A stretch of DNA of 64,000 nt from an uncultured bacterium (GTDB lineage Bacteria; Patescibacteriota; Minisyncoccia; Moranbacterales; GWC2-37-73), in contig CAIOVI010000019.1 in assembly GCA_903861715.1 (NCBI GenBank), forward strand, positions 5,936 to 69,935, in the 5' to 3' direction. A program made the translations under genes and the position numbers. The stretch's first letter is position 1. Each line of letters starts with the position of its first letter. Under the pieces are notes generated by a model that had not been told where the DNA came from, ran no database searches, and worked only from the letters and a program-made list of their open reading frames with translations. Below are positions 14,519 through 62,736 of the stretch, one piece after another.

Positions 14519-14676
14519 GGTGAAGTGAACGTCTGGCTAGGGCGGACTGAACAGCCTGGCCGCCTTTGAAGGAAGCGACGATAACAAAAGGTTTTTTGCC
14601 TCACCGATTTTATCGGTGTGAGTCTGAAGGGCACAGGGCCTGCCTACCGGTAGGCAGGCTTGCTCTGGGGTATTAA
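14519..14676. repeat. structured repeat element A (copy 1), containing the 22-bp perfect palindrome gcctgcctaccggtaggcaggc
   Basis: About 105 nt are shared with the inverted copy at 30287-30400. Copy 1 carries an extra insert of about 45 nt at 14530-14575. Confidence 0.7.
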
Positions 14677-14710
14677 TATTCTTTTATTTTACAAAAAAAG
14701 CTAACGCAAA

Positions 14711-16388: not shown

Positions 16389-16614
16389 TTTTTGAAATAG
16401 TATTTTGTATTTTGCATTTTCCTCTCCGCACATTGCGCAGTGCGTAGGTAAAAGACGAGTGATGAGCGTTAAGAAATTTTGAAACGCAGTGAGGTCAGTA
16501 GGCCGAACGGAGTGTAAATTTTAGCGAAGAGTGAAGTCTTTGCCCCAGCAACAAGCACGTGTCGGGATTTCTTTTGTAACTTTTCTATTAAAAGAAAAGT
16601 TAACCTCTGTAATG

Positions 16615-16650
16615 CTGGATTGCTTCGGATGATTACATCCTCGCAAAGAC
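16615..16650. repeat. family-2 palindromic element, right-arm half copy
   Basis: ctggattgcttcggatgattacatcctcgcaaagac matches the right arms of the full copies at 17627-17718 and 18444-18537. Confidence 0.55.
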
Positions 16651-17626: not shown

Positions 17627-17718
17627 GTCATCGCGAGGATTTTGTAATCAAAATCCGTGGCGATCCAGAGCCTTGCAACGCCCTGGATTGCTTCGGAGGA
17701 TTACCTCCTCGCAAAGAC
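17627..17718. repeat. family-2 palindromic element of about 92 nt (full copy)
   Basis: gtcatcgcgaggattttgtaatcaaaatccgtggcgatccag, then a loop, then ctggattgcttcggaggattacctcctcgcaaagac. The arms are reverse complements and contain nested hairpins. Confidence 0.6.
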
Positions 17719-18443: not shown

Positions 18444-18537
18444 GTCATTGCGAGGATGTAATCATCCGTGGCAATCCAGAATGTTGCCAGGCCCTGGATC
18501 GCCACGTATTTCCGAGTACAGAAATACTCGCGAAGAC
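18444..18537. repeat. family-2 palindromic element of about 94 nt (full copy)
   Basis: gtcattgcgaggatgtaatcatccgtggcaatccag ... ctggatcgccacg ... ctcgcgaagac. It begins 6 nt after the ndk stop. Confidence 0.6.
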
Positions 18538-21296: not shown

Positions 21297-21335
21297 ATGG
21301 AGGCTCAACCTCCATAATGGAGGTTGAGCCTCCAT
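21297..21335. repeat. GGAGG-hairpin palindromic repeat (copy 1): atggaggctcaacctccat a atggaggttgagcctccat
   Basis: Perfect 19-bp inverted arms. Each arm is itself a ggagg/cctcc mini-hairpin. The element is flanked by a T-run and an A-run. Confidence 0.7.
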
Positions 21336-30000: not shown

Positions 30001-30282
30001 CAAGATGAAGAAACTTTCGTTACTTTTCAAGCAATGCGACAAAGAAATTCTTTTTTCGCCATACTGGCTAGGGCTGACAAAAATTTGTTTAAATTTCTTG
30101 GCGGGCCAATCGTGTTGGGCGCAGAGCGCAATAGCAAACAAGCGGATGCAAATTTTGAGCAGTTGCGTGCTGCTCAAAAAAAGGCTGAAAAAAGCAGGCT
30201 AGCTTTATTGCTCGAATTTGCATTTGCCTTGGCCGCCACAATTTTCTTTGCCCTTAGTTTTTTCAGGGCTCGTTTCAAATAA
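27061..30282 (+). CDS. large secreted / surface-anchored protein with parallel beta-helix N-region, lipase-like alpha/beta-hydrolase domain (GHSMGS), Ser/Asn low-complexity linker and C-terminal TM anchor
   Basis: Signal peptide. Beta-helix-like repeats (NASNG..., SDNRNAG...). VIFIPGIGAS ... VTHSMGSLVAR lipase/PGAP1-like motif. (SN)n tract. Hydrophobic C-terminus. Confidence 0.65.
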   Translation: MRKKIFPGLHLGIAMLVWIFWGVKVAQALVLVTNDVIVPTTWTKANSPYVIQNFIEIKAPLVIEAGTVIKFQNFESDGGPTVPGLGIQSAFTAVGSPLEKIVFTSACDSNYGGDTQQDCSSKMPSRSGSWDSLRVWVGFGQPVLIEYVKILNASNGVTYVNSQCNFSYRDLTVRNTEISFASSAGIALQCVQPILDSLKLTFNYDGIYVSNSVYNYTPKIRNSILSDNRNAGVEAYRYTYFDARYNYWGDASGPYYGYDNQGNTEGPNKSGSGNRIVGTSVLFRPWDKSDPTIPKKPVIFIPGIGASINPDLMIGGVFADNWTMFDHTYDGILKAFKVMGYQEGKNFFIAYYDWRQGNGESAEKYLKPLIKKALTLNDVTQVNLVTHSMGSLVARSYVQSSSYANNVDNLIMIAPPNRGSSDVYTLWEGGYIPKNWSSRTAMVYYLAYLQLINLETSRYNIIHKYIPSLKDLLPVYDFLFPTGKADELKNFFDMQERNDFLLDLNKSVAGLKTKTDLSIILGDKQPTVSKIPFVDSDQAGLWLDGKPSPLDPVRDDASGDGEVLRLSGDIPSNFWAVLNYDHSAIVSKSEKIVADLLGETLTDTFDSPEIKDEIIFWTDAPGDLKVSDPDGASAPKDNNEDTDVRYAQEEGKDGFKIVSVPNVKNGQYHVELQGHENGNYHLATEYVDHKNENQQEAVQVVQTQKDQTQNFVVTVDPKNPVTPIQDVQLQDEIAPTITLQAPEDGKAYANDQILPIVFSVSDNVSKEEDLVVEKYLDDDSQLFEADSIDFAKLALGQHVFWINVYDEAGNYNSVGVSFEVKQAETPSNPPADNGSGNQDQTGGSGGAGGGNQNNGNTDPDSGSNSNGGSNSNSNSNSNSGSQPVTEAVVAPTQSAAAQENSGSNRKKTASHKKKKQIKTISTTTKFIEGGGVTKSSEPIKVLFSSNFNLSKNSEEQQNLFYQVLEENLKGQLLAMEENPIQDEETFVTFQAMRQRNSFFAILARADKNLFKFLGGPIVLGAERNSKQADANFEQLRAAQKKAEKSRLALLLEFAFALAATIFFALSFFRARFK
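29671..29700 (+). repeat. hexanucleotide microsatellite (aattct)x5, in frame, encoding SNSNSN
   Basis: Read directly from the sequence. Confidence 0.8.
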
Positions 30283-30286
30283 AAGT

Positions 30287-30400
30287 GTATTAATACCCCA
30301 GGGCAAGCCTGCCTACCGGTAGGCAGGCCCTGGACCCTTCGGGCTCACATCGATAAAATTGGTGAGGTATCAATCTTTTGTTATCGTCGCTCACTTCGCT
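30287..30400. repeat. structured repeat element A (copy 2, inverted relative to copy 1)
   Basis: Its reverse complement matches 14572-14676, including the 22-bp palindrome. It starts 5 nt after the stop of the upstream gene. Confidence 0.7.
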
Positions 30401-33214: not shown

Positions 33215-33321
33215 TTATATTTAACAGATTAACACTGATATAAAACTGATAAACACTGATCACGGATATCCGTGCTCCGTAAAAATCCGTCAAGGATCTG
33301 TTAAAATCAGTATAAAAAAAT

Positions 33322-35946: not shown

Positions 35947-35989
35947 TTTCCGATGCGAAACTACGAATGAAATACGAATCTACGAAATT

Positions 35990-36016
35990 AAAAAACAGCC
36001 TGCGGGCTGTTTTTTG
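35990..36016 (+). terminator. rho-independent terminator after fusA
   Basis: cagcc tgcg ggctg followed by tttttt. Confidence 0.7.
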
Positions 36017-36058: not shown

Positions 36059-36092
36059 GGAGGCTCAACCTCCATATGGAGGTTGAGCCTCC
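36059..36092. repeat. GGAGG-hairpin palindromic repeat (copy 2)
   Basis: ggaggctcaacctcc atat ggaggttgagcctcc. Confidence 0.7.
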
Positions 36093-36190
36093 TTGCTAGC
36101 ACGCAACTTTATTTGATTTGGCATGCTTGGGGAGATAAAAAAGTTTTCATCATAAAGTAAACTTTCTTGATATTTCAAAAAGTTTAGCTT

Positions 36191-40056: not shown

Positions 40057-40535
40057 AAATTGACATTGTTAATTGGCAGTTATATTATATCAATATGAAA
40101 AACCAAACCAAAAAAACTGAAGAAAAAGTTTATACCATGGGAGAAGTCGGCTCTTTGCTGGAAAGCATGGACGGTACCATGAAGATGATGTCAGAAAATT
40201 ATGTCGGTCTTGTGAAAACTCAGGATAAAATTCTTGCGGTTCAGTATGATATGAAAAATCAACTTGAACGAGTTGAAATTAGACTCAGTGGCGTCGAGGG
40301 CGGGCTTATTGGTGTCGAGGGCAGGCTCAGTGGTGTCGAAGGCAGGCTTAGTGGTGTCGAGGGAAGATTGGATGGAGTTGAGCACCGACTTGAAAAAGTT
40401 GAAACCAAAATCGACAGGCTGCAAGATGATATGGTGGAAGTGAAGTTTGAACTCAAGAAGAAAGTTGCTGTGGATGATTTCGAAAAATTGGAAAAGCGAG
40501 TCGTCAAGCTCGAAAAACTTTCCTATTCGCATTAG
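40053..40535 (+). CDS. coiled-coil protein with tandem heptad repeats (GVEGRLS)x5
   Basis: RLSGVEGGLIGVEGRLSGVEGRLSGVEGRLDGVEHRLE is encoded by 21-nt tandem repeats at about 40279-40385. The start could instead be the ATG at 40095. Confidence 0.5.
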   Translation: MKIDIVNWQLYYINMKNQTKKTEEKVYTMGEVGSLLESMDGTMKMMSENYVGLVKTQDKILAVQYDMKNQLERVEIRLSGVEGGLIGVEGRLSGVEGRLSGVEGRLDGVEHRLEKVETKIDRLQDDMVEVKFELKKKVAVDDFEKLEKRVVKLEKLSYSH

Positions 40536-40698: not shown

Positions 40699-40733
40699 GG
40701 AGGTTCGACCTCCATTAGGGAGGTCGAACCTCC
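40699..40733. repeat. GGAGG-hairpin palindromic repeat (copy 4, variant ttcga/tcgaa)
   Basis: ggaggttcgacctcc attag ggaggtcgaacctcc. Confidence 0.7.
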
Positions 40734-40776
40734 TTGTAACCAACAGTAATTTAATTGATTTGGTATAAGTAAAAAT

Positions 40777-41451: not shown

Positions 41452-41485
41452 GAGGCTCAACCTCCATAATGGAGGTTGAGCCTCC
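41452..41485. repeat. GGAGG-hairpin palindromic repeat (copy 5)
   Basis: gaggctcaacctcc ataat ggaggttgagcctcc. Confidence 0.7.
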
Positions 41486-41502
41486 AATGGCTGAAGTTAA
41501 AT

Positions 41503-45613: not shown

Positions 45614-45931
45614 TATGCGAATAGTCGCGAATGAGTGTTACGAATGGATGCGAATTATTTCCGAATAGTCGCGAATTGGCTGAAAAGCTTGCATAAATTT
45701 AAAAATTGGTTTAGGATAAATAGACTAGAAAAAAGAAAAGAAACTAGTTAAAGTCCGGCCTTAAAAAGTCGGATACTCAATTAGCCAAGTCGCGGACTTT
45801 TCCGTTGACTCTGCTGGCTGAGAAGTCAGTTTTTTTAATCCTACGAAATTACGAAAAATATGGAATGATTTATTTTTGTAAATTTGTAAAGAGTTATAAA
45901 TTTTAGAATAAAGTTTAGGATATTTACTGAT
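45614..45931 (+). promoter_or_regulatory. unusually long (318 bp) S10-L3 spacer containing cgaat-rich repeats and two terminator-like hairpins (45759-45800 and 45805-45837, the latter followed by T7)
   Basis: aaagtccggcc ... gtcgcggacttttcc, and tgactctgctggctgagaagtcagttttttt. Confidence 0.5.
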
Positions 45932-46492
45932 ATGAAAAATATTTTAGGAAAAAAAATGGGCATGACAACGCTGTATGATCAAACGCAAGGTGCGCTTAAT
46001 GTTACTTTGATTGAATGCGAGCCAAACACTGTGGCTATTGTCAGGACTTCCGAGAAAGATGGTTATAGTGCCGTCCAACTTGCCACCCAAAAGACCAAGA
46101 AAGTTGCTCACAAGAAAGAATTTCGCAGTGAGCAGGCGGTGACATTGGCTGTTGGGGACAAGATTACCGTTGAAAATTTTGCGATTGGAGATTTGGTCAA
46201 GGTTAGCGGAATTGCCAAGGCAAAAGGATTTCAGGGAGGCGTGAAAAGACATGGGTTTGCGGGTTCTCCTGCATCTCATGGACACAAGCACGATTTGCGA
46301 GCTCCTGGTTCAATTGGTGCTCAGCAACCACAGCATGTTATCAAAGGAAAAAGAATGGCTGGACGTATGGGAGGCAAGAGAAAATCAGTGAAGAATGTGA
46401 AAGTGGTTTATTTGAATGTTGAAAAGAATTTGATCGGTGTGCTTGGCTCAGTGCCAGGTGTCGTCGGAAGAGTGGTTGAAATTAAAGGATAA
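45932..46492 (+). CDS. rplC: 50S ribosomal protein L3
   Basis: GKKMGMTTLYD start and overall uL3 blocks. Confidence 0.9.
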   Translation: MKNILGKKMGMTTLYDQTQGALNVTLIECEPNTVAIVRTSEKDGYSAVQLATQKTKKVAHKKEFRSEQAVTLAVGDKITVENFAIGDLVKVSGIAKAKGFQGGVKRHGFAGSPASHGHKHDLRAPGSIGAQQPQHVIKGKRMAGRMGGKRKSVKNVKVVYLNVEKNLIGVLGSVPGVVGRVVEIKG

Positions 46493-46591
46493 TACGAATG
46501 CTGATACGAATTATGCCCGAATTATATACGAATATAATTTTAGGACAATTCGGATGTAATTAGGATATAATTTGGATTAAAATTAGGATAT
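46493..46591 (+). repeat. r-protein intergenic repeat (type 1)
   Basis: atacgaatgctgatacgaattatgcccgaattatatacgaatataatt ... aattaggatataatttggattaaaattaggatat ATG. Confidence 0.8.
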
Positions 46592-47221
46592 ATGGCTACA
46601 ATTGCCCTGCACAATCTAGAAGGAAAGAAATTGGAAGATTTGAACATTTCAGATGCGGTTTTCGCAGTGAAATCAAACGATGAACTTTTGCACCAAGTTT
46701 TCATGGTGATTGCTGGCAATCAAAGATTTTCAATTGCCAACACAAAAGACAAAAGTGAAGTTGCTGGAACTGGCAAAAAACCTTTCAAGCAAAAAGGAAC
46801 TGGCAGCGCCCGTCAAGGACAGAAAAGAAATCCAGTGATGAAAGGTGGTGGAATTGCTTTTGGACCAACCAGCGATCGAAATTTCAAACGCGATGTGAAC
46901 AAAAAAATGAAGCAAAAGGCGGTGCGGATTGCGCTTTCTGAAAAACTTCGCAGCGGAACTTTGATTGCGGTTGATGCTCTTGAGCTCAAGGACGCCAAAA
47001 CCAAAGCTTTTGCGCAAGTTATCAAAAACCTCAAACTGACTGGAAAGACTTTGGTGTCATTTGCTGATGGAGAAAAGAAATTGTCAATTGCTAGTCGCAA
47101 TCTTCCCAAGATTGCCAATATTGAAACCAAGGATTTGAATGTATATGATTTGCTCAACAACAAAAATGTGCTCTTGAGCAAAGCCTCGATTGCATTTTTG
47201 GAAGAAAAATTTAGCAAGTAA
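46592..47221 (+). CDS. rplD: 50S ribosomal protein L4
   Basis: KQKGTGSARQGQ ... GGGIAFGP uL4 blocks. Confidence 0.9.
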   Translation: MATIALHNLEGKKLEDLNISDAVFAVKSNDELLHQVFMVIAGNQRFSIANTKDKSEVAGTGKKPFKQKGTGSARQGQKRNPVMKGGGIAFGPTSDRNFKRDVNKKMKQKAVRIALSEKLRSGTLIAVDALELKDAKTKAFAQVIKNLKLTGKTLVSFADGEKKLSIASRNLPKIANIETKDLNVYDLLNNKNVLLSKASIAFLEEKFSK

Positions 47222-47323
47222 ATCGCGAATCAACTCGAATTTAAATCCGAATAATCGCGAATAAAAAAGTATTAGAGAAAATTAGTGAAATAATTAGTGT
47301 TGATTAGTGATTTATTTAAACAT
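47222..47323 (+). repeat. r-protein intergenic repeat (type 2: gtattagagaaaattagtgaaataattagtgttgattagtgatttat)
   Basis: About 50 nt are shared with the S3-L16 spacer at 50541-50631. Confidence 0.7.
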
Positions 47324-47707
47324 ATGGCAGTAATAGAAGAGAAAAAAGAGAATATTGCAAAAAAGGAAGTAGCGGCCAAAAAGGCAGTGAAAAAGGTTGT
47401 TCCTCGAGCTGCTGAAAATGCCGACATTGCTTACAAAGTTTTGGTTGAACCTTGGATCACTGAAAAATCCCATGCAGGCTTGGCTGAAAACAAATATGTT
47501 TTCAGAATCACCCAGGATGCTACCAAGGCGCAAGTGAAAAAAGCAATCGAAGGTTTTTATCAAGTGAGTGTCCAAAAGGTTGCAGTTTTGAATTTTATTC
47601 CAAAGAAAAGAGCCTATGGCAGATTCGAAGGCGCAAAATCAGCAATCAAGAAAGCCGTGGTGACTTTGAAAGAAGGAGATAAGATTGAATTGTTCCAAGG
47701 AGCCTAG
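47324..47707 (+). CDS. rplW: 50S ribosomal protein L23 (with Lys/Ala-rich N-terminal extension)
   Basis: YKVLVEPWITEKSHAGLAENKYVFRI uL23 core. The start is at the MAVIEEKK ATG. Confidence 0.85.
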   Translation: MAVIEEKKENIAKKEVAAKKAVKKVVPRAAENADIAYKVLVEPWITEKSHAGLAENKYVFRITQDATKAQVKKAIEGFYQVSVQKVAVLNFIPKKRAYGRFEGAKSAIKKAVVTLKEGDKIELFQGA

Positions 47708-47815
47708 ATGCGAATTATGATGCGAATTATATCCGAATATAATCCGAATCAGCAGGAAAGCTTTTTATGAAAAATTCGGAAATAATTAGGATGTAATTTG
47801 AATAAAAATTAGGAT
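47708..47815 (+). repeat. r-protein intergenic repeat (type 1b subfamily)
   Basis: gatgcgaattatgatgcgaattatatccgaatataatcc ... aattaggatgtaatttgaataaaaattaggat. Near-identical to 52555-52664. Confidence 0.8.
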
Positions 47816-48646
47816 ATGGCAATTAAAGTATACAAAAAGAATACCGCAGGTAGGCGAAATATGAGTATTGTGAAGCCTGATGATTTGACCAAGAAGAAAC
47901 CTGAGAAATCTTTGCTGGCGCCAATGACTCAAAAGGCTGGACGCAGTCACGGCAAGATTTCAACCAGGCATCAAGGTGGTGGACACAAGAGACGCTATCG
48001 CTTGGTGGATTTCAAGCAACAAAAATTTGATATTCCTGGAAAAATTATTGCGATTGAACGAGACCCAAACAGAAGCGCTTTGATTGCTTTGGTTTCATAT
48101 AAAGATGGAGACAAACGATACGTGTTGGCTTCAGAAGGGATGAAGCAAGATGTGGAAATTGTGTCAGGCGAAAGCGCACCAATCAAAAAAGGTAATCGAA
48201 CCGTGCTGCGAAACATTCCTTCGGGAACAATCATCTCGAACATTGAATTAGTGGTTGGCAAAGGCGGACAACTTTCACGTAGCGCTGGATCCGGAGCAAC
48301 TTTGATGGCTATTGATGGAAAGATGGCGCAATTGAAAATGTCCTCGAATGAAATTCGTTTGGTGAGCAAAGATTGCTATGCAACTATTGGAAAAGTGAGC
48401 AACTTCGAACATAGCGCTGAAAAAATTGGAAAGGCTGGAAGAAACAGATGGAAAGGCAAACGACCAGAAGTTCGCGGATCAGCCATGAATCCAGTTGATC
48501 ATCCACACGGAGGAGGAGAAGGCCGACAAGGAATTGGATTGAAACATCCGAAGACTCCATGGGGCAAGCCAGCTCTCGGAAAGAAGACCAGAAAGAAGAA
48601 AAGATACAGTGATAAGTTTATTGTCAAGCGAAGAGTCAAGAAATAG
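47816..48646 (+). CDS. rplB: 50S ribosomal protein L2
   Basis: Canonical uL2 sequence including HPHGGGEG. Confidence 0.95.
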   Translation: MAIKVYKKNTAGRRNMSIVKPDDLTKKKPEKSLLAPMTQKAGRSHGKISTRHQGGGHKRRYRLVDFKQQKFDIPGKIIAIERDPNRSALIALVSYKDGDKRYVLASEGMKQDVEIVSGESAPIKKGNRTVLRNIPSGTIISNIELVVGKGGQLSRSAGSGATLMAIDGKMAQLKMSSNEIRLVSKDCYATIGKVSNFEHSAEKIGKAGRNRWKGKRPEVRGSAMNPVDHPHGGGEGRQGIGLKHPKTPWGKPALGKKTRKKKRYSDKFIVKRRVKK

Positions 48647-48745
48647 ATACGAATGATGATACGAATTACATCCGAATTATATACGAATATAATTTACGGA
48701 TAATTCGGATATAATTAGGATATAATTTGAATAATAAATTAGGAT
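48647..48745 (+). repeat. r-protein intergenic repeat (type 1)
   Basis: atacgaatgatgatacgaattacatccgaattatatacgaatataatttacggataattcggatataattaggatataatttgaataataaattaggat. Confidence 0.85.
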
Positions 48746-49093
48746 ATGTCAAGAAGTTTAAAGAAAGGACCATTTGTTGATGAGCGCGTTGTGAAGAAAG
48801 TTCTCAATGCAACTCCAGGGCAAGGCACAATTAAAACTTGGTCACGAGCCTGCACAATTACGCCTGAAATGATTGGTTTCACTTTTGGAGTGCATAACGG
48901 CAAAGAATTTATTCCAGTTTATGTCACAGAAGAAACGGTTGGACACCGACTGGGGGAATTTTCACCAACTCGCAAATTTGTCAGACATGGAGGTAAAATG
49001 CAGAAAGAAATAGAATCAGCCGCCAAGCAAAAAGCCCAAGATGCAGCCAAAGCAGCCAAGGCTGAGCCAGCAGGAGGAGCGAAGAAGAAATAG
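48746..49093 (+). CDS. rpsS: 30S ribosomal protein S19 (with Ala/Lys-rich C-terminal extension)
   Basis: [11 protein letters not shown] ... [13 protein letters not shown] uS19 core. Confidence 0.9.
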
Positions 49094-49194
49094 ATACGAA
49101 TGTTGATACAAATTACATCCGAATTATATACGAATATAATTTATGAAAAATCCGGATATAATTAGGATATAATTCGAATAATAAATTAGGATAT
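49094..49194 (+). repeat. r-protein intergenic repeat (type 1)
   Basis: Near-identical to 48647-48745. Confidence 0.85.
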
Positions 49195-49779
49195 ATGAAA
49201 GTTAAAGCCTCACTCAAAAATTTAAGAATGTCTCCCCGAAAGGTCAGATTGGTCACCCGTAGTATTGTGGGCATGAATGTTGCTCAAGCCTTGATTCAAT
49301 TGCAAAATTTGGTCAAGAAAACGAGCAATCCTTTGGAGAAATTACTGCGAAGCGCTATTGCTAACGCCGAAAACAATTTTGGATTGGACAAAGACAATTT
49401 GTTTGTCAACAATATCCAAGTTGGTGGAGGACCAAGTTTGAAACGCTGGCTCCCGAGGGCTCAAGGACGAGCGACACTGATTTTGAAGAGAACTTGTCAA
49501 ATTGATCTGGAATTGGAAGAAAGTGTGGAAGGCAAGAATCGCAAATCGAAAGAGCAATTGGAAAAAGAAAGAGCGCAGCGAGAGAAGGCGACGCAAAAAA
49601 CAACTAAGGTGGAAGAAGTGAATGAAGCGGAAGTTGTGGATGAAGCGAAACCAGCGGAAACAGTAACTCAAAAAACAGTCACCAAAAAAACTCCAGTCAA
49701 GAAAGAAGTTCCCAAGAAAGGACAACAGAAAGATGGCAATTTTTTGAATAAAGTGTTTCAGCGAAAATCAGGAGTATAA
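49195..49779 (+). CDS. rplV: 50S ribosomal protein L22 (with long charged C-terminal extension)
   Basis: uL22 core over the first 110 aa, followed by a Lys/Glu-rich tail. Confidence 0.9.
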   Translation: MKVKASLKNLRMSPRKVRLVTRSIVGMNVAQALIQLQNLVKKTSNPLEKLLRSAIANAENNFGLDKDNLFVNNIQVGGGPSLKRWLPRAQGRATLILKRTCQIDLELEESVEGKNRKSKEQLEKERAQREKATQKTTKVEEVNEAEVVDEAKPAETVTQKTVTKKTPVKKEVPKKGQQKDGNFLNKVFQRKSGV

Positions 49780-49883
49780 ATACGAATGAGATGCAAATTA
49801 TGGACGAATTGGATGCGAATGTGGCATAAAGTTTAAAAATTGGGATATAATTAGTATATAATTAGGATATTAAATTAGAATAT
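49780..49883 (+). repeat. r-protein intergenic repeat (type 1, degenerate copy)
   Basis: Starts atacgaatgagatgcaaattatggacgaatt and ends gatataattagtatataattaggatattaaattagaatat. Confidence 0.6.
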
Positions 49884-50540
49884 ATGGGACATAAAGTAAA
49901 CCCAATAGGATTGCGAATAGGTATTACCAACACTTGGAAATCGAGGTGGTTTTCTGACAAGGATTATACCAAAAAGCTCAAAGAAGACATTCAAATCAGG
50001 GAATTCATCAAAAAGAAATACAAGAGTGCTGCTATTGCAGAGGTTGAAATTCATCGCAGTGCTGGCACCTTGAAACTGATTTTGAAAACTTCCAGACCTG
50101 GAGTTTTGATTGGGCGCGGCGGAAATGGAATCGGTGACATCAGCAAAATAATCAAAGATAAGTTCTTCGCTGGTCGAAAGATCGATTTGAAAATTGAAGC
50201 TCAGGAAGTTCGTCAGTTTGAAGAAAATGCTTCACTGGTTGCACAAAGCGTGGCTGAACAGTTGGAAAAACGAGTGCCTTTCAGAAGAATTTTGAAGTCA
50301 ACACTGGACACAGTTGAGAAAAATAGAATTGTCAAAGGAGTGAAAATTGAAGTTTCCGGACGCTTGGGTGGAGCTGAAATGTCTCGTCGAGAATGGCTTT
50401 CAAGAGGAACGGTGCCGCTGCACACTTTGCGAGCAGACATTGATTTCGCCAAGGCAACTGCCTTTACAACCTATGGAGCCATTGGAGTGAAGACTTGGAT
50501 TTACAAAGGAGAGGTGTTTGATGAAAAAAATGCGAATTAA
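49884..50540 (+). CDS. rpsC: 30S ribosomal protein S3
   Basis: GHKVNPIGLRIG uS3 N-terminus and KH domain. Confidence 0.95.
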   Translation: MGHKVNPIGLRIGITNTWKSRWFSDKDYTKKLKEDIQIREFIKKKYKSAAIAEVEIHRSAGTLKLILKTSRPGVLIGRGGNGIGDISKIIKDKFFAGRKIDLKIEAQEVRQFEENASLVAQSVAEQLEKRVPFRRILKSTLDTVEKNRIVKGVKIEVSGRLGGAEMSRREWLSRGTVPLHTLRADIDFAKATAFTTYGAIGVKTWIYKGEVFDEKNAN

Positions 50541-50631
50541 TTTGAATCTGATTTAAAATGATTGCGAGTGTAGCAAAGTATTAGAGAAAATTAGTGACAT
50601 AATTAGTGTGGATTAGGGATTTACCAAATAT
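50541..50631 (+). repeat. r-protein intergenic repeat (type 2)
   Basis: gtattagagaaaattagtgacataattagtgtggattagggatttac. Confidence 0.7.
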
Positions 50632-51045
50632 ATGTTGATGCCAAAAAAAGTTAAACACAGAAAGATTCACCGAGGAGGAGAAATTCGGGGAGTTGCAACC
50701 AAAGGTAATGCCGTGAGTTTCGGCAGCTTTGGACTCAAGGCCGAAACCTCAGGACTGATTTCAGCTCGTCAAATTGAAGCTGCTCGAAGAGCGATGACCA
50801 GATATGTGAAAAGAGGTGGCAAGATTTGGATCAGGATTTTTCCGGACAAGCCAATGACCAAAAAAGGTGATGAAACTCCGATGGGTAAAGGAAAAGGTAG
50901 TGTGGATCATTTTGTAGCTAAGATTAAGGAGGGAAGAATGTTGTTTGAAATGGATGGGATCGATGTTTCAGTTGCCAAGGAGGCAATGAGACTTGCTTCT
51001 CACAAATTGTGTGTCAAAACAAAATTTGTGGCAAAGGAAAAATAG
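50632..51045 (+). CDS. rplP: 50S ribosomal protein L16
   Basis: [15 protein letters not shown] uL16 N-terminus. Confidence 0.95.
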
Positions 51046-51147
51046 TATCCGAATGTTGATACAGATTACATCCGAATTGTATACGAATATAATTCATGAA
51101 CAATCCGGATATAATTAGGATATAATTCGAATAATAAATTAGGATAT
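51046..51147 (+). repeat. r-protein intergenic repeat (type 1)
   Basis: tatccgaatgttgatacagattacatccgaattgtatacgaatataattcatgaacaatccggatataattaggatataattcgaataataaattaggatat. Confidence 0.85.
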
Positions 51148-51336
51148 ATGAAAATTCAGGAAATTAGAGATTTAAATATTGAGCAAATCAAAAAGCTCAT
51201 TGCCGAGAAAAGAACGCAGGCAGTGAAACTTCGTTTTGATATTGCAGCTCGCCAGCTCAAAAATCATCGTGAGTATCGAGCTATCAAGAAAGATGTCGCT
51301 CAAGCGTTGACGGTTTTGAAGCAACTCGAGCAATAA
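51148..51336 (+). CDS. rpmC: 50S ribosomal protein L29
   Basis: Helical protein of about 62 aa with the uL29 pattern, at the expected position. Confidence 0.85.
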   Translation: MKIQEIRDLNIEQIKKLIAEKRTQAVKLRFDIAARQLKNHREYRAIKKDVAQALTVLKQLEQ

Positions 51337-51441
51337 AAGAATAATGTGAATGTCGATACGAGTTATGTCCGAATTATATGCAAATATAATTTAAGGACAA
51401 TTCGGATATAATTAGGATATAATTAGGATAAAAATTAGGAT
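51337..51441 (+). repeat. r-protein intergenic repeat (type 1)
   Basis: ... gtccgaattatatgcaaatataatttaaggacaattcggatataattaggatataattaggataaaaattaggat. Confidence 0.8.
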
Positions 51442-51681
51442 ATGACAAACACCACTAAAAAATTAGCAACCAAAAAAGGAAAAGTTGTGAGCGACTCAAT
51501 GGACAAAACCATTGTGGTTGCAGTTCAAACGCTGAAAACTCATCCGAAATATTTGAAGAAATATCGCTCGACCAAGAAATACAAGGTTCACGACGCAGAA
51601 AACAAGCACAAGGTTGGAGAAGTGGTGGAATTTGTGCAATGCAGGCCATTAAGCAAGGACAAGAACCACACATTAGCCTAA
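51442..51681 (+). CDS. rpsQ: 30S ribosomal protein S17
   Basis: GKVVSDSMDKTIVVAV ... YKVHDE uS17 blocks. Confidence 0.9.
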   Translation: MTNTTKKLATKKGKVVSDSMDKTIVVAVQTLKTHPKYLKKYRSTKKYKVHDAENKHKVGEVVEFVQCRPLSKDKNHTLA

Positions 51682-51781
51682 AATACGAATGTTGATACGA
51701 ATTAATCCGAATTATATGTAAATATAGTTTGAGGACAATTCGGATATAATTAGGATATAATTTGGATAAAAATTAGGATAT
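51682..51781 (+). repeat. r-protein intergenic repeat (type 1)
   Basis: aatacgaatgttgatacgaattaatccgaattatatgtaaatatagtttgaggacaattcggatataattaggatataatttggataaaaattaggatat. Confidence 0.85.
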
Positions 51782-52147
51782 ATGATTCAAGCAGAAACAA
51801 GATTAAGAGCAGCTGATAATTCTGGAGCAAAAGTGATTGAATGCTTCAAGATTCTGGGTGGAACTCGCAGGCGTTATGCCTCTGTGGGCGACATCATTGT
51901 TTGCTCTGTTAAATCAGCTGAACCGAGAGGCTTGGTGAAGAAAGGAGACAAAGTTCGCGCCGTGATTGTCAGACAGAAAAAAGCCTACAGACGCAAAGAT
52001 GGATCCTATATCCGTTTTGATGAAAATGCTGCGGTGATTGTTAATGAAAAAGAGCCGAAAGGAACCCGTATTTTTGGACCAATTGCCAGAGAATTGCGTG
52101 AAAAAGGTTTTGCCAAGATTGTGTCATTGGCGCCAGAAGTATTATAG
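51782..52147 (+). CDS. rplN: 50S ribosomal protein L14
   Basis: [17 protein letters not shown] uL14 N-terminus. Confidence 0.95.
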
Positions 52148-52248
52148 ATACGAATGTTGATACGAATTACATCCGAATTATATTTACGAATATAATTTAC
52201 GGACAATTCGGATATAATTAGGATATAATTCGAATAATAAATTAGGAT
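52148..52248 (+). repeat. r-protein intergenic repeat (type 1; differs at one position from the 53930-54030 copy)
   Basis: atacgaatgttgatacgaattacatccgaattatatttacgaatataatttacggacaattcggatataattaggatataattcgaataataaattaggat. Confidence 0.9.
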
Positions 52249-52554
52249 ATGAGAATTAAAAAAGGAGACCTCGTGAAAAAAATTGCAGGCAAGGATAAGG
52301 GAAAACAAGGCAAAGTCTTGCGAACTGTGCCAAGCGAGGGAAAAATTGTGGTTGAAAAAATGAACATTGTGAAAAAGCACAAGAAGGCTCGCCGAGAAGG
52401 AGAAAAGGGACAAAGAGTTGAAATTGCTGCTCCCTTTGATGCTTCGAACGCAATGTTGATTTGTCCATCCTGTGGAAAAGCAACTCGAACTTCCTATGCT
52501 TTTATCAAAGAAAGGAAAGTGCGAGTTTGCAAGAAATGTGGGAAGGAAATCTAG
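52249..52554 (+). CDS. rplX: 50S ribosomal protein L24 with a C-terminal CxxC...CxxC zinc-ribbon-like tail
   Basis: KOW region KKGDLVKKIAGKDKGKQGKV. The C-terminus CPSCGKATRTSYAFIKERKVRVCKKCGKEI replaces the usual uL24 tail. Confidence 0.85.
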   Translation: MRIKKGDLVKKIAGKDKGKQGKVLRTVPSEGKIVVEKMNIVKKHKKARREGEKGQRVEIAAPFDASNAMLICPSCGKATRTSYAFIKERKVRVCKKCGKEI

Positions 52555-52664
52555 ATACGAATTATGATGCGAATTATGTCCGAATATAATCCAAATCAAT
52601 AAATCAGTTTTTTATAAAAAATTCGGAAGAAATTAGGATGTAATTTGAATAAAAATTAGGATAT
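52555..52664 (+). repeat. r-protein intergenic repeat (type 1b subfamily)
   Basis: atacgaattatgatgcgaattatgtccgaatataatccaaatca ... aattaggatgtaatttgaataaaaattaggatat. Confidence 0.8.
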
Positions 52665-53213
52665 ATGAAAATAACTCCAGCAAAAGAAAAATATACGAAA
52701 ACTGTTGCAGCTCAAATGCAAGAGAAATTTGGATATAAAAGCGTCATGGCAGTGCCTCGAATCAAGAAAGTGGTGGTTAATGTTGGAATTGGCAAGATTG
52801 TGAAGGAAAATGATAAAATTGAGGAAGTCGTCAATACTTTGACCGCTATTACTGGGCAAAAACCTGTCAAAACCAAAGCCAAGAAAGCGATTGCCGGTTT
52901 TAAAACCAGAGAAGGCATGGAAGTTGGCGTGAAAGTGACTTTGCGAGGAGCTCGGATGTGGCAGTTTATTGACAGATTGATTGTGGCTACCTTGCCAAGA
53001 ACAAGAGATTTCCAAGGCATCACCCGTAAATCAGTTGACAGCCATGGGAATATAAACATTGGAATCAAGGAGCATTTGATTTTTCCTGAGATTTCCCCTG
53101 AACGTGTAAAATATACTTTCGGATTGCAAGCGACAGTTTCAACGACTGCCACCTCACAAGCAGAAGGTTTGGAATTATTTAAATTATTAGGATTTCCGCT
53201 GAAAAGCGAATAA
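52665..53213 (+). CDS. rplE: 50S ribosomal protein L5
   Basis: KEKYTKTVAAQMQEKFGYKSVMAVPRIKKVVVNVGIG is canonical uL5. Confidence 0.95.
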   Translation: MKITPAKEKYTKTVAAQMQEKFGYKSVMAVPRIKKVVVNVGIGKIVKENDKIEEVVNTLTAITGQKPVKTKAKKAIAGFKTREGMEVGVKVTLRGARMWQFIDRLIVATLPRTRDFQGITRKSVDSHGNINIGIKEHLIFPEISPERVKYTFGLQATVSTTATSQAEGLELFKLLGFPLKSE

Positions 53214-53233
53214 GTAAAATTGATTAAATAAAT

Positions 53234-53419
53234 ATGGCGAAAACATCTACCCAAGCTAGAGCAGAAAAAAAACCAAAATTTTCGACCCGTGAGGTGCGAA
53301 GGTGTTGGCGTTGTGGTCGGAAACATGGTTATCTTCGAGCCTTTGATATTTGCAGAATTTGCTTTCGCGAGTTGGCAAGTAAAGGAGAACTGCCGGGGGT
53401 AAAGAAAAGTAGTTGGTAA
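53234..53419 (+). CDS. rpsN: 30S ribosomal protein S14 (type Z, zinc-binding, 61 aa)
   Basis: [23 protein letters not shown]. Confidence 0.9.
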
Positions 53420-53524
53420 ATACGAATTATTTATCCGAATTACATCCGAATTATATGAAGATATGATTTGTGAATAATCCAGATAAAAAATAAGATAATT
53501 ATAATTAGGATAAAGAATTAGAAT
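53420..53524 (+). repeat. r-protein intergenic repeat (type 1, diverged 3' half)
   Basis: atacgaattatttatccgaattacatccgaattatatgaagatatgatt ... ataattaggataaagaattagaat. Confidence 0.7.
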
Positions 53525-53929
53525 ATGTTAGATCCAATAGCAGACATGCTCACAAGAATTAGAAACGCCCAGCGAGCGAAACACAAAGAGGTTTCGGTGC
53601 CGTTTTCGAAGTTGAAATATTCTATTGCTCAAATTTTGCAGCAAAGACATTTCATTCAAGCTGTCAAAAAAGAAGATGGAGAGAAATTTCCAGTGCTCAA
53701 CATTACTTTGAAATATGAGGTTGTTTCCAACACGGAGAAAAATCCTGCCATTCGGGAGATCAAGAGAGTGAGTCGAGAAGGTCAGCGGATTTATGTGAAA
53801 AAGACTGACATCAAGCGAATCAAGAACGGCTATGGAATTTCAATTGTTTCCACTTCCAAGGGTATGATGACTGGAGACAGTGCCAGAAAATTGGGATTGG
53901 GCGGGGAAATAATTTGTGAGGTCTGGTAG
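53525..53929 (+). CDS. rpsH: 30S ribosomal protein S8
   Basis: DPIADMLTRIRNA uS8 N-terminus. Confidence 0.95.
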   Translation: MLDPIADMLTRIRNAQRAKHKEVSVPFSKLKYSIAQILQQRHFIQAVKKEDGEKFPVLNITLKYEVVSNTEKNPAIREIKRVSREGQRIYVKKTDIKRIKNGYGISIVSTSKGMMTGDSARKLGLGGEIICEVW

Positions 53930-54030
53930 ATACGAATGTTGATACGAATTACATCCGAATTATATTTACGAATATAATTTACGGACAATTCGGATATAAT
54001 TAGGATATAATTTGAATAATAAATTAGGAT
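53930..54030 (+). repeat. r-protein intergenic repeat (type 1)
   Basis: Differs from the 52148-52248 copy at one position. Confidence 0.9.
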
Positions 54031-54567: not shown

Positions 54568-54653
54568 GGCATCCGAAAAGCGCACTACGAAAGCGCCCAT
54601 ACGAAATTTCGTAGATTCGCATTTAATTCGTAGATTCGTATCGGTAAATCATT

Positions 54654-55004: not shown

Positions 55005-55120
55005 GTTAAGTAAACAGAATTAACACGGATTTTTAACAGAATTAACACGGAAACACGGAAACTATTTTGAATTTTTTTGTGTCGTTCTGTAATTTTCTGT
55101 GTAATTCCGTTATAGTATAT

Positions 55121-55654: not shown

Positions 55655-55775
55655 CATTTTTTCTGTTTTATAAATTATTGGCCCCACAAATCTACAAATT
55701 GACTACAAATCTATAAATGCGCATGAATTTATTTGTAGATTTGTATAAGATTCGTAGATTAGTAGGGATATTGTT

Positions 55776-56210: not shown

Positions 56211-56316
56211 TCATTCAATCATTTAAACATGCAAACAGTTAAACATATTAGCATTTAAACATGGTTTCAATAGGGTGTTGTTTAAATGATTAGATGTTTA
56301 GATGTTAAAATGAAAG

Positions 56317-57588: not shown

Positions 57589-57598
57589 AAGTCACAAA

Positions 57599-57658
57599 AC
57601 ATAGAGCATAGAGCATAGAGCATTTTTGTTCCATGTTCCATGTTCCATGTTCCATGTT
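57599..57658 (+). repeat. two adjacent tandem heptamer arrays, (catagag)x3 and (ccatgtt)x4, ending at the adk ATG
   Basis: acatagagcatagagcatagagcatttttgttccatgttccatgttccatgttccatgtt. Confidence 0.8.
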
Positions 57659-62575: not shown

Positions 62576-62736
62576 TAATCAGTAGCTAGTAACCAATGAT
62601 TAATAATTTCTAAAAAAGAAATGGATTAAAATTGTTATATTGTTATATTGTCATATTGTTTTTTATAAATTTTATTATCAATATATCCGTATATCAATAT
62701 AACAATGTAGCAATGTAGCAATTAAAATTATATTTT

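Follow-up and report, generated by a model that had tools for sequence, protein, structure and literature searches.

The stretch of 64 kb analysed here (the window; contig CAIOVI010000019.1, from an uncultured bacterium of the Moranbacterales) carries the S10/spc ribosomal-protein supercluster (the cluster) on its + strand at 45.3-59.2 kb. The genes follow the order rpsJ-rplC-rplD-rplW-rplB-rpsS-rplV-rpsC-rplP-rpmC-rpsQ-rplN-rplX-rplE-rpsN-rpsH-rplF-rplR-rpsE-rplO-secY-adk-map, as assigned from the list of open reading frames (ORFs) and from Pfam labels on identical contigs. The same arrangement recurs in at least five independent assemblies in the European Nucleotide Archive, which rules out an assembly artefact, and homologues of the window's L22 are named Candidatus Moranbacteria. 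Few bacterial gene arrays are as compact or as conserved as ribosomal-protein operons. Coding sequence here accounts for 82% of the stretch from S10 to secY, versus 93% in a compact relative (L017), because nearly all junctions are occupied by modules of about 100 nt. Twelve of the junctions each hold a copy of one such repeated element, the CGAAT/ATTAGG repeat, which is our subject. The gene for L30, rpmD, is missing between rpsE and rplO (55655-55775), a hallmark of the Candidate Phyla Radiation (CPR), and the genes after map (59.2 kb onward) are unrelated ones rather than infA-rpmJ-rpsM-rpsK-rpsD-rpoA.

For comparison we used the orthologous clusters of strains of the same species (L001-L005) and of relatives ranked by the identity of their ribosomal protein L22 to that of the window: L013 (85%), L014 and L012 (82%), L015 (82%), L018 (74%), L016 (66%) and L017 (63%).

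A polar repeat fills twelve ribosomal-protein gene junctions

An earlier reading of the window, made from the sequence alone (the sequence-only reading), had described an element of 99-110 bp at 12 junctions of the cluster, and both the spacer lengths (Table 1, in gene order) and our model searches agree with it. All 12 copies can be aligned end to end; they are AT-rich (20-29% GC), share 55-99% pairwise identity, and each runs from the stop codon of one gene to the start codon of the next, ending 0 or 2 nt short of the ATG. A profile hidden Markov model (HMM) and a covariance model (CM) built from the 12 copies each match exactly 12 forward-strand sites in the window, with nhmmer scores of 54-92 bits and CM scores of 69-122 bits, and neither model matches anywhere in the window outside 46.49-54.03 kb. 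Every site also gives a far weaker match on the reverse strand. Strong matches on the forward strand only, paired with weak reverse ones, identify the element as a polar quasi-palindrome that points the same way as the genes in every instance; all the L014 copies likewise run with their genes. A 15-mer from the element, AATTAGGATATAATT, occurs 30 times with up to two mismatches versus 0.32 times expected, and 29 of the 30 occurrences lie inside the cluster. The sequence-only reading had picked out the copies at 52148-52248 and 53930-54030 as differing at one base, as indeed they do (C/T in aattCgaat versus aattTgaat; 99% identical), and had reported a different motif shared by the rplD/rplW and rpsC/rplP junctions, which we find to extend over 49 nt at 94% identity.

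Phased arrays can pair into a stop-to-start hairpin

The element consists of two facing arrays of short units, each registered on a codon. In the 5' array, xCGAAT hexamers lie at +6, +18, +29 and +40 from the stop codon; the first 11-nt unit, TAG-ATACGAAT, contains the stop codon itself, and later units read TTG/TAC/TAT-AT(A/C)CGAAT. In the 3' array, the hexamers are ATT(C/A/T)G(G/A), at -43, -32, -21 and -8/-10 relative to the ATG; its last unit, ATTAGGATATG, contains the start codon, and those before it read ATT(C/A)GGATATA. The 11-nt period is evident in the cluster spacers, with autocorrelations of 0.44 and 0.42 at lags of 11 and 22, versus about 0.29 elsewhere.

The reverse complementarity of the two arrays, though imperfect, allows every spacer to form a long, AU-rich hairpin. 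Predicted energies for the CGAAT family range from -13 to -23 kcal/mol, with z-scores mostly of -2 to -3.3 (mostly -2 to -4 across all the families described below). In a set of 83 distinct filled spacers drawn from eight genomes, the widest helix predicted covers 83% of the spacer and encloses a median of 28 pairs; its median start is 7 nt past the stop codon and its median end 9 nt short of the ATG. The sense fold is the more stable in 56 of 84 spacers, versus 27 for the antisense fold (p=2e-4, the copies not being independent of one another). Likewise, G·U pairs outnumber A·C mismatches (29 versus 17, and 36 versus 10), and the recurrent mismatch is a G·A in the sense strand. A core helix of 16 pairs has 92% of its cells paired in 30 distinct copies, versus 12-57% in slid controls, with a few both-sided changes; the tccgga variants, which the sequence-only reading had proposed as a place to look for compensatory change, are not compensated. 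Taken together, the uniform co-orientation, the sense-fold preference, the excess of G·U over A·C and the paired core helix point to a role at the RNA level. Alignment, folds and the minimal gap before the ATG also bear out the earlier description of a polar, hairpin-forming element that ends at the start codon and supplies its upstream context.

The repeat is one family within a wider class of modules

Although the sequence-only reading treated it as a single peculiar element, the CGAAT/ATTAGG repeat is one family within a general class of array-hairpin modules that comprises many motif families, in the window and in related genomes. Seven more junctions of the cluster and several other sites in the window show equal architecture with different motifs (Table 1): three or four direct short units starting from the stop codon, a loop, and three or four inverted units leading up to the ATG. 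In each family the forward units pair with that family's own inverted units, and the same design is also found in unrelated metagenome-derived contigs. We considered and rejected a model in which genes are bracketed by inverted arrays, either as gene-sized transposons or as a panhandle of 5' and 3' untranslated regions: adjacent junctions of different families are not complementary, while the arms within a junction are.

Scans of public collections locate the CGAAT family in other CPR-like contigs before nusG, at the nusG/rplK, ssb/rpsR, rpsM/rpsK and rpmI/rplT junctions, upstream of rpmJ and at the junction upstream of dnaK. Confinement of the element to the S10/spc cluster, which the HMM and CM searches uphold for the window, thus fails in other genomes, where the family also sits beside nusG, rpmJ, dnaK and at rpsM/rpsK and rpmI/rplT. 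Nowhere in the sequence examined is it abundant at random intergenic sites, the distribution that the sequence-only reading had associated with a generic mobile repeat. Placement follows a simple rule: arrays of the CGAAT type begin 3-16 nt past a stop codon, and arrays of the ATTCG type finish 4-16 nt before a start codon. Half elements also exist, in the form of ATTCGGAT arrays directly upstream of rpsT (which is monocistronic), uvrB and a sigma-factor gene. Phage, plasmid and IMG/VR collections yielded no true copy of the element, the lone 21-mer match (L051) being unrelated sequence.

A forward-only array (gatgCGAAActaCGAATgaaataCGAATctaCGAAAtt) lies at 35947-36010 in the window, after a gene for a 694-aa GTPase that is EF-G by comparison with relatives; it has no inverted array and is followed by a standard intrinsic terminator, showing that post-stop arrays can lack a partner arm.

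Table 1. Array-hairpin modules and related arrays in the window, with the CGAAT/ATTAGG family first
Feature	Coordinates	Strand	Length (nt)	Evidence and comparison
rplC/rplD (L3/L4) module, CGAAT/ATTAGG family	46493..46591	+	99	CM 113 bits; L014 orthologue 90% identical, 3' 45 nt 98%
rplW/rplB (L23/L2) module, long-loop subfamily	47708..47815	+	108	97% identical to L014 orthologue; flanking third positions 63%
rplB/rpsS (L2/S19) module, derived in window lineage	48647..48745	+	99	L014 and outgroup L016 share another, mutually homologous short spacer
rpsS/rplV (S19/L22) module	49094..49194	+	101	Alignment, CM
rplV/rpsC (L22/S3) module, diverged copy	49780..49883	+	104	CM 79 bits; L013 retains just a 39-nt 3' arm/leader
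rplP/rpmC (L16/L29) module	51046..51147	+	102	Alignment, CM
rpmC/rpsQ (L29/S17) module	51337..51441	+	105	Final ~26 nt (ataattaggataaaaattaggatATG) matches the S17 leader of short-spacer relatives, with 1-2 substitutions
rpsQ/rplN (S17/L14) module	51682..51781	+	100	L014 spacer here 13 nt
rplN/rplX (L14/L24) module	52148..52248	+	101	L014 orthologue 97% identical
rplX/rplE (L24/L5) module	52555..52664	+	110	Paralogue of rplW/rplB copy, 83%
rpsN/rpsH (S14/S8): shorter CCGAAT hairpin, then native S8 leader	53420..53524	+	105	CM 69 bits
rpsH/rplF (S8/L6) module	53930..54030	+	101	One base off the copy at 52148-52248
rpsJ post-stop array, six xCGAAT units, without adjacent 3' arm	45614..45680	+		Present in L013, L015; absent from L014, L016, L017
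rplD/rplW (L4/L23) module, TCGCGAAT/ATTAGTGA family	47222..47323	+		Dominant family of L013, L015; spacer 19 nt in L014, 12 nt in L017
rpsC/rplP (S3/L16) spacer with ATTAGTGA-type 3' arm	50541..50631	+		Motif family TCGCGAAT/ATTAGTGA
rplF/rplR (L6/L18) module, TACGAAA/TTCGTAG family	54568..54653	+		Family at other junctions in L014, L013, L004
rplR/rpsE (L18/S5) module, ACACGGA / TCTGTG-TCCGT family	55005..55120	+		dG -28.3, z -2.75
rpsE/rplO (S5/L15) module, CTACAAAT/ATTTGTAG family	55655..55775	+		dG -31.7, z -3.9
rplO/secY (L15/secY) module, TTAAACAT/ATGTTTAG family	56211..56316	+		Folding, motif comparison
secY/adk short module, CATAGAGC / GTTCCATG family	57589..57639	+		Sole Rfam match is a chance miRNA hairpin
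Module of the same architecture, aacaGAT/aacactGAT ... ATCtgtt/ATCagt	33215..33321	+		Probably the rpsL/rpsG junction; gene identity inferred from the gene order of relatives
Module of like architecture, flanked by two non-ribosomal genes, TTATATTG x4 ... CAATATAA/CAATGTAG	62576..62736	+		Periodicity

Modules enter junctions by replacement of whole spacers

Across the clusters compared, spacer lengths are bimodal, at either 1-50 nt or about 85-145 nt. Because L017 is compact almost throughout (spacers of 1-30 nt) and compact spacing is the rule in bacteria generally, compactness is the ancestral state. The dominant motif family differs from genome to genome: CGAAT/ATTAGG in the window, TCGCGAAT/ATTAGTGA in L013 and L015 (about 14 junctions), GTTCTAA/TAGAAC in L018 and GTCCATAAAG/GACTTGAAAG in L016. 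At rplB/rpsS and rpsC/rplP, L014 retains short spacers homologous to those of the outgroup L016, which identifies the window's modules at these two junctions as derived, with the whole spacer replaced. At rpsN/rpsH, the same site holds any of three families, depending on the genome or strain, and in every case the native S8 leader follows downstream, unchanged; strains of a single species differ at four junctions, with families swapped between them. When filled and empty orthologous junctions are set side by side, the difference is a replacement of the whole spacer with no visible target duplication, the AT-rich flanks being just the stop codon and the ATG. These sequence comparisons show that modules have been copied between junctions, entering by whole-spacer replacement, and the gains and losses of modules and the swaps of family among relatives and strains fit the suggestion in the sequence-only reading that the elements have an origin like that of MITEs (miniature inverted-repeat transposable elements). 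The 3' arm is at the same time the leader of the downstream gene: the S17, S8 and S3 leaders (…ATTAGGAT…ATTAG(G/A)ATATG) persist in genomes without the 5' arm.

Genes of the window and of the strains L004 and L002 form a mosaic, in which some are 100% identical (rpsS, rplV, rpsC, rpmC, adk) and others 92-96% (tuf, rplB, rplN, rplR, secY), indicating that homologous recombination between lineages is frequent. The spacer between rplE and rpsN measures 20 nt in the window (53214-53233) versus 166-170 nt in L002, L004 and L013, where the insert is bounded by the inverted repeat cccgcaccaa ... ttggtgcggg and looks like another kind of insertion element.

Modules are maintained by purifying selection

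Between the window and L014, modules differ at 30 of 514 nt (5.8%), versus flanks in which third codon positions are only 45-72% identical per gene and four-fold sites 47%. Modules of L013 and L015 are 8.9% different, with four-fold sites 58% identical, and within the species (window versus L004) modules are 0.6% different, with four-fold sites 93% identical (7% divergent). Overall, orthologous copies are 90-100% identical, versus 53-73% for flanking third codon positions, and the divergence of the flanks reaches right to the module boundary, as at rplW/rplB (Table 1). Since orthologous modules are far more conserved than the adjacent third positions, we conclude that they are under purifying selection and are not neutral MITE debris. 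Concerted evolution as the cause of the conservation can be set aside as well, since orthologues are more alike than paralogues (97% versus 55-86% for the rplW/rplB copy). The sequence-only reading had offered recent homogenisation or selection as alternatives; the answer is mostly selection, with some copying and short-tract conversion between junctions.

Conservation of the module sequence is comparable to that of the first and second codon positions of the ribosomal genes. Within modules, the final 45 nt are no less conserved than the initial 45 in most orthologous pairs, though not in all; the loops vary most, and divergence is lower at positions predicted to be paired than at those predicted to be unpaired (4.1% versus 7.2%, p=8e-4).

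Start context poor in Shine-Dalgarno sequences, and promoters

In this lineage few genes have a Shine-Dalgarno core at the proper spacing: in the window it precedes 1 of the 23 genes of the cluster and 3 of 37 non-translation genes elsewhere, and the clusters of the window, L013, L014, L016 and L017 have it at 0-3 of 23 genes per genome. The AGGA in ...TTAGGATATG lies just 1-3 nt from the ATG, too close for canonical Shine-Dalgarno pairing. Many ribosomal genes share a start-adjacent ATTAG(G/A/T)ATATG, which in other contigs is also found before rplK, rpsK, rpmJ and rpsT.

The promoter-like pair that the sequence-only reading placed in every copy did not hold up. TTGATA-16-TATATT is listed in two copies only, and the TTGATA hexamer varies and is unconserved in orthologues. 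TATAAT boxes are present, and promoter-like matches number 40 versus 27.9 +/- 4.6 in shuffled sequence; these matches are symmetric on both strands, and -35-like hexamers (GGACAA, TTGATA) vary among copies and orthologues. With -35 hexamers unconserved and matches on both strands, we rejected a conserved sigma-70 promoter, with its two hexamers 16-18 nt apart, for each gene. Elsewhere in the window, a canonical TTGACA-17-TATAAT promoter lies upstream of a gene for a Fic-domain protein (1327-1458), flanked by the inverted repeat aaccgtgaaaaa / tttttcacggtt; this organism therefore uses standard sigma-70 promoters and operator-type regulation.

Other features of the window

The interval between rpsJ and rplC contains a further non-coding segment of about 150 nt (45687-45836), which is kept in all six genomes compared, the compact L017 included. 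It shows a promoter-like TTGCAT-N17-TAnnAT pair, an A-rich stretch, a terminator-like GCUGGCUGAGAAGYCAG followed by U7, and hairpins with compensatory changes (for example GUCCGG../..UCGGAU versus GUCCAA../..UUGGAU). The segment has no match in Rfam, and may be a leader or attenuator for rplC or a small RNA gene.

The genome's load of small palindromic repeats is unusually rich for a CPR organism. A GC-rich, REP-like perfect palindrome, GAGGCTCAACCTCCAT(A)ATGGAGGTTGAGCCTCC, has four intergenic copies (21300-21334, 36059-36093, 40700-40734 and 41452-41486) and a fifth, variant copy at about 39.7 kb that is visible only in the raw spacer listing; it forms a dispersed-repeat family separate from the junction modules. 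A repeat pair of 103 nt in inverted orientation is 86% identical (14587-14689 / 30277-30379), and a family of about 40-70 nt, CTGGATTGCTTCGGATGATTACATCCTCGCAAAGAC, occupies three neighbouring spacers, one copy being inverted (16612-16650, 17683-17718, 18444-18511). Within ORF 40095-40535, four to five tandem 21-nt repeats (…GGTGTCGAGGGC…) at 40281-40385 encode a 7-aa repeat; the small protein has a faint DUF7310 match on related contigs.

Discussion

Our analysis identifies intercistronic modules in a ribosomal-protein cluster that combine strong sequence conservation with the turnover of a mobile repeat. As a tentative explanation, which we favour while regarding it as somewhat short of probable, we propose that these array-hairpin modules work as cis-acting parts of the sense mRNA and influence either translation or the fate of the message, in a lineage that rarely employs Shine-Dalgarno sequences. 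In this model, each spacer would fold into a long, imperfect, AU-rich hairpin whose helix base juxtaposes the stop and start codons, hiding internal AUGs and most of the spacer and leaving the last unit and the AUG largely single-stranded. Such a hairpin could keep termination coupled to reinitiation, and the start site defined, despite an insertion of 100 nt and the scarcity of Shine-Dalgarno sequences, while its 3' arm would serve at once as the next gene's conserved leader. The modules probably originated as selfish copy-paste hairpin elements, and those that survive in an essential operon would be the insertions that kept stop and start juxtaposed, after which the host may have come to depend on module folding. 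A compatible variant would add cleavage by a double-strand RNase. More boldly, and here we are doubtful, a CPR subclade may have converted its ribosomal-protein operons to interchangeable, copy-pasted hairpin cassettes that bridge stop to start, with ribosomes crossing the base of the ~100-nt hairpin in a manner resembling shunting or reinitiation where Shine-Dalgarno sequences are nearly lacking, and with selfish insertions made indispensable by a constructive-neutral ratchet; such a ratchet would account for both the rapid turnover of families and their strong conservation.

Several of our results weigh against a hairpin acting on translation in cis. Consensus structures and energies from RNAalifold are weak. 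Partition-function folding shows no strong masking of the initiation region, and holding the 15 stop-proximal nucleotides open, as a ribosome halted at the stop codon would, shifts the probability of being unpaired only from 0.49-0.67 to 0.52-0.79, so that a simple unmasking model of translational coupling finds weak support and we do not retain it. Half of the orthologue substitutions at predicted pairs break the pair, and none is fully compensated. Unpaired positions, at 7.2% divergence, are too strongly conserved for a purely structural role, implying that primary sequence matters beyond pairing. Finally, some half-modules have no partner arm with which to form the hairpin: the rpsJ post-stop array and the pre-start arrays of rpsT, uvrB and the sigma-factor gene.

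Other explanations share parts of this evidence. The modules could be RNA-processing sites, at which RNase III or another structure-specific endonuclease would cut the transcript into monocistronic mRNAs with stabilising stem halves. The predicted duplex, imperfect and about 28-35 bp in length, would be long enough (the median of 28 pairs over 83% of the spacer exceeds the roughly 20 bp needed), there is one site at every junction, both arms are conserved, the periodic mismatches could position cleavage, and the sense-strand preference is as it should be for an RNA substrate. We nevertheless consider processing unlikely: the stems are AU-rich with many mismatches and a weak consensus energy, half-modules without a partner arm cannot be duplex substrates, and the coincidence of the helix base with stop and start codons is left unexplained. 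A second possibility dispenses with host function altogether and holds that the modules are purely selfish, non-autonomous mobile elements (MITE-, REPIN- or ERIC-like), alike because they spread recently and placed by target preference. Much of the comparative history reads this way, including orthologous junctions that differ, even from strain to strain, in whether they hold a module and in its family, near-identical dispersed copies, inverted arms, the occurrence of the family at different junctions in other genomes, and a genome rich in other small palindromic repeat families. Yet this neutral reading is the rival most clearly contradicted by our data and we regard it as quite unlikely, since orthologues remain 90-100% identical where flanking synonymous sites are near saturation up to the boundary, which excludes neutral decay, and since orthologues are closer than paralogues. 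Uniform co-direction with the genes also speaks against it, as do the absence of a visible target-site duplication, of a transposase among the 20 window ORFs scanned with Pfam, and of copies in the phage, plasmid and IMG/VR collections.

The conservation of primary sequence even at predicted unpaired positions could instead reflect DNA-level elements, such as phased protein-binding arrays or curved AT-tract DNA, serving as per-gene promoters with operators or as gyrase or nucleoid-protein platforms that manage supercoiling where transcription of the operon is heavy, as proposed for BIMEs. The 11-nt period is near the helical repeat, each element has several perfect TATAAT boxes, promoter-like matches exceed those in shuffled sequence, and the pre-start half arrays lie in the promoter-proximal regions of rpsT, uvrB and the sigma-factor gene. 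We find this reading slightly harder still to credit, because -35-like hexamers are unconserved among copies and orthologues, promoter-like matches are symmetric on the two strands, the elements do not reproduce the genome's canonical TTGACA-17-TATAAT promoter, and other families have different motifs with periods of 8-13 nt, which makes a single DNA-binding partner unlikely; strict co-orientation and the asymmetry of sense and antisense folding point to RNA. A trans-acting translation regulator recognising shared sites, whether a CsrA-like protein on repeated A-GGA-U motifs, a ribosomal protein, or complementary rRNA or small RNA, would give regulon-wide control of ribosomal proteins. This would suit a family found almost only beside translation-related or highly expressed genes (S10/spc, nusG-rplK, rpsM/rpsK, rpmJ, rpsT, rpmI/rplT, dnaK), with sequence-level conservation and a nearly invariant start-proximal unit, ATTAGRATATG. 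Sister genomes, however, use unrelated motifs at the same junctions (ATTAGTGA, TAGAACA, GACTTGAAAG), so that a protein partner would need to have changed its specificity repeatedly, and strains of one species swap families; of all the explanations considered, this one strikes us as very improbable.

Whatever their mode of action, the modules join two properties that are usually separate, the turnover of a mobile repeat and sequence conservation like that of coding regions. If, as we favour, they act in mRNA, they show how a genome-reduced organism poor in Shine-Dalgarno sequences couples or insulates the translation of adjacent cistrons, and they would amount to a naturally made kit of intercistronic parts that can be interchanged. 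Should they be addictive selfish elements, they offer a clean case of constructive neutral evolution in an essential operon. They are also an unannotated yet recognisable feature of many CPR metagenome contigs, one that gene callers and operon predictors ignore.

Relationship to known elements

The modules correspond to none of the catalogued families that we searched. No Rfam family, ribosomal-protein leaders included, reaches its gathering threshold in the window, and relaxing the cut-off to E<=1 for 45.1-57.7 kb adds nothing but a miRNA match due to chance; a tRNA/tmRNA scan finds none. Intrinsic terminators are excluded, as none of the 19 cluster spacers has a run of five or more T near its 3' end and a terminator scan finds none inside modules. 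We also considered TIGR arrays, in which tigRNA units carrying box C/D motifs and spacer pairs adjoin a tas (Nop-domain) gene and which are known, in association with Tas, in Patescibacteria (10.64898/2026.09.09.750476). The modules are isolated units of about 100 nt with 11-nt sub-units and no consistent box C/D, and the cluster has no tas-like gene. A full-text literature search returned no description of such elements for CPR/Patescibacteria or for ribosomal-protein operons.

Several known systems nonetheless share individual traits with them. REP/BIME elements and REPINs of Enterobacteria and Pseudomonas are likewise repeated extragenic palindromes that often lie just past stop codons or in operons, form mRNA hairpins and belong to lineage-specific families, and a REPIN is itself a hairpin of about 100 nt made of two inverted REPs. 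REPs, however, are GC-rich palindromes of 20-40 nt with GTAG/CGTC tags, mobilised by RAYT transposases. The modules, at 20-29% GC and with xCGAAT/ATTnGG units, are not REPs; they are AT-rich, with three or four phased units per arm, an exact stop-to-start span, a downstream leader and uniform co-orientation, and no RAYT was seen in the window. Closer in size are the ERIC/IRU and Correia (NEMIS) elements, imperfect palindromes of about 100-150 bp in transcribed intergenic regions that vary in presence between strains and whose RNA hairpin affects the stability or processing of flanking cistrons through RNase E or RNase III. These have single long terminal inverted repeats, occur in both orientations and, in the case of Correia, duplicate a TA target, unlike the modules with their short-unit arrays in stop/start register, strong purifying selection and no visible target-site duplication. 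To our knowledge, ERIC and Correia elements have not been reported to saturate a ribosomal-protein operon. With MITEs more generally the modules share imperfect inverted arms and copies of variable identity (the 55-99% among the 12) with presence/absence polymorphism, but not neutral decay, given the 90-100% identity of orthologous copies against 53-73% at flanking third positions.

The mycobacterial MIRUs resemble the modules in another way: these intercistronic repeats of 46-101 bp lie inside operons in the direction of transcription, directly against the stop and start codons, and a part in maintaining translational coupling has been proposed for them. They consist, however, of direct tandem repeats with small ORFs that overlap the flanking stop and start, whereas the modules are forward and inverted arrays with no conserved ORF; a MIRU-like relay ORF is excluded by internal ATG frames that end at different places and by indels that shift the frame. 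Integron attC sites, such as the Vibrio VCRs, are homogeneous, species-specific imperfect palindromes of about 60-140 bp between co-oriented genes, in which structure is more conserved than sequence. They separate cassettes rather than core ribosomal genes in universally conserved order, and their core sites RYYYAAC/GTTRRRY are found in 0 of 19 cluster spacers. The intercistronic RNase III sites of phage T7 and plastid intercistronic expression elements also place a structured element at each junction that yields or stabilises translatable monocistronic units; these are single, non-repeated and family-specific, unlike the present copy-pasted family, for which processing is only hypothesised. 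Ribosome shunting across a stem in plant pararetroviruses, and termination-reinitiation coupling, provide an analogy only, through a like topology with one ORF ending directly 5' of a long stem and the next beginning directly 3' of it. Shunting is a eukaryotic 40S mechanism, and we know of no bacterial example with a hairpin of about 100 nt at operon junctions. We therefore place the modules within the broad class of intergenic repetitive palindromic elements, as a form that is new in its exact fill from stop to start, its codon-registered units, its interchangeable families, its saturation of an operon and its maintenance by purifying selection.

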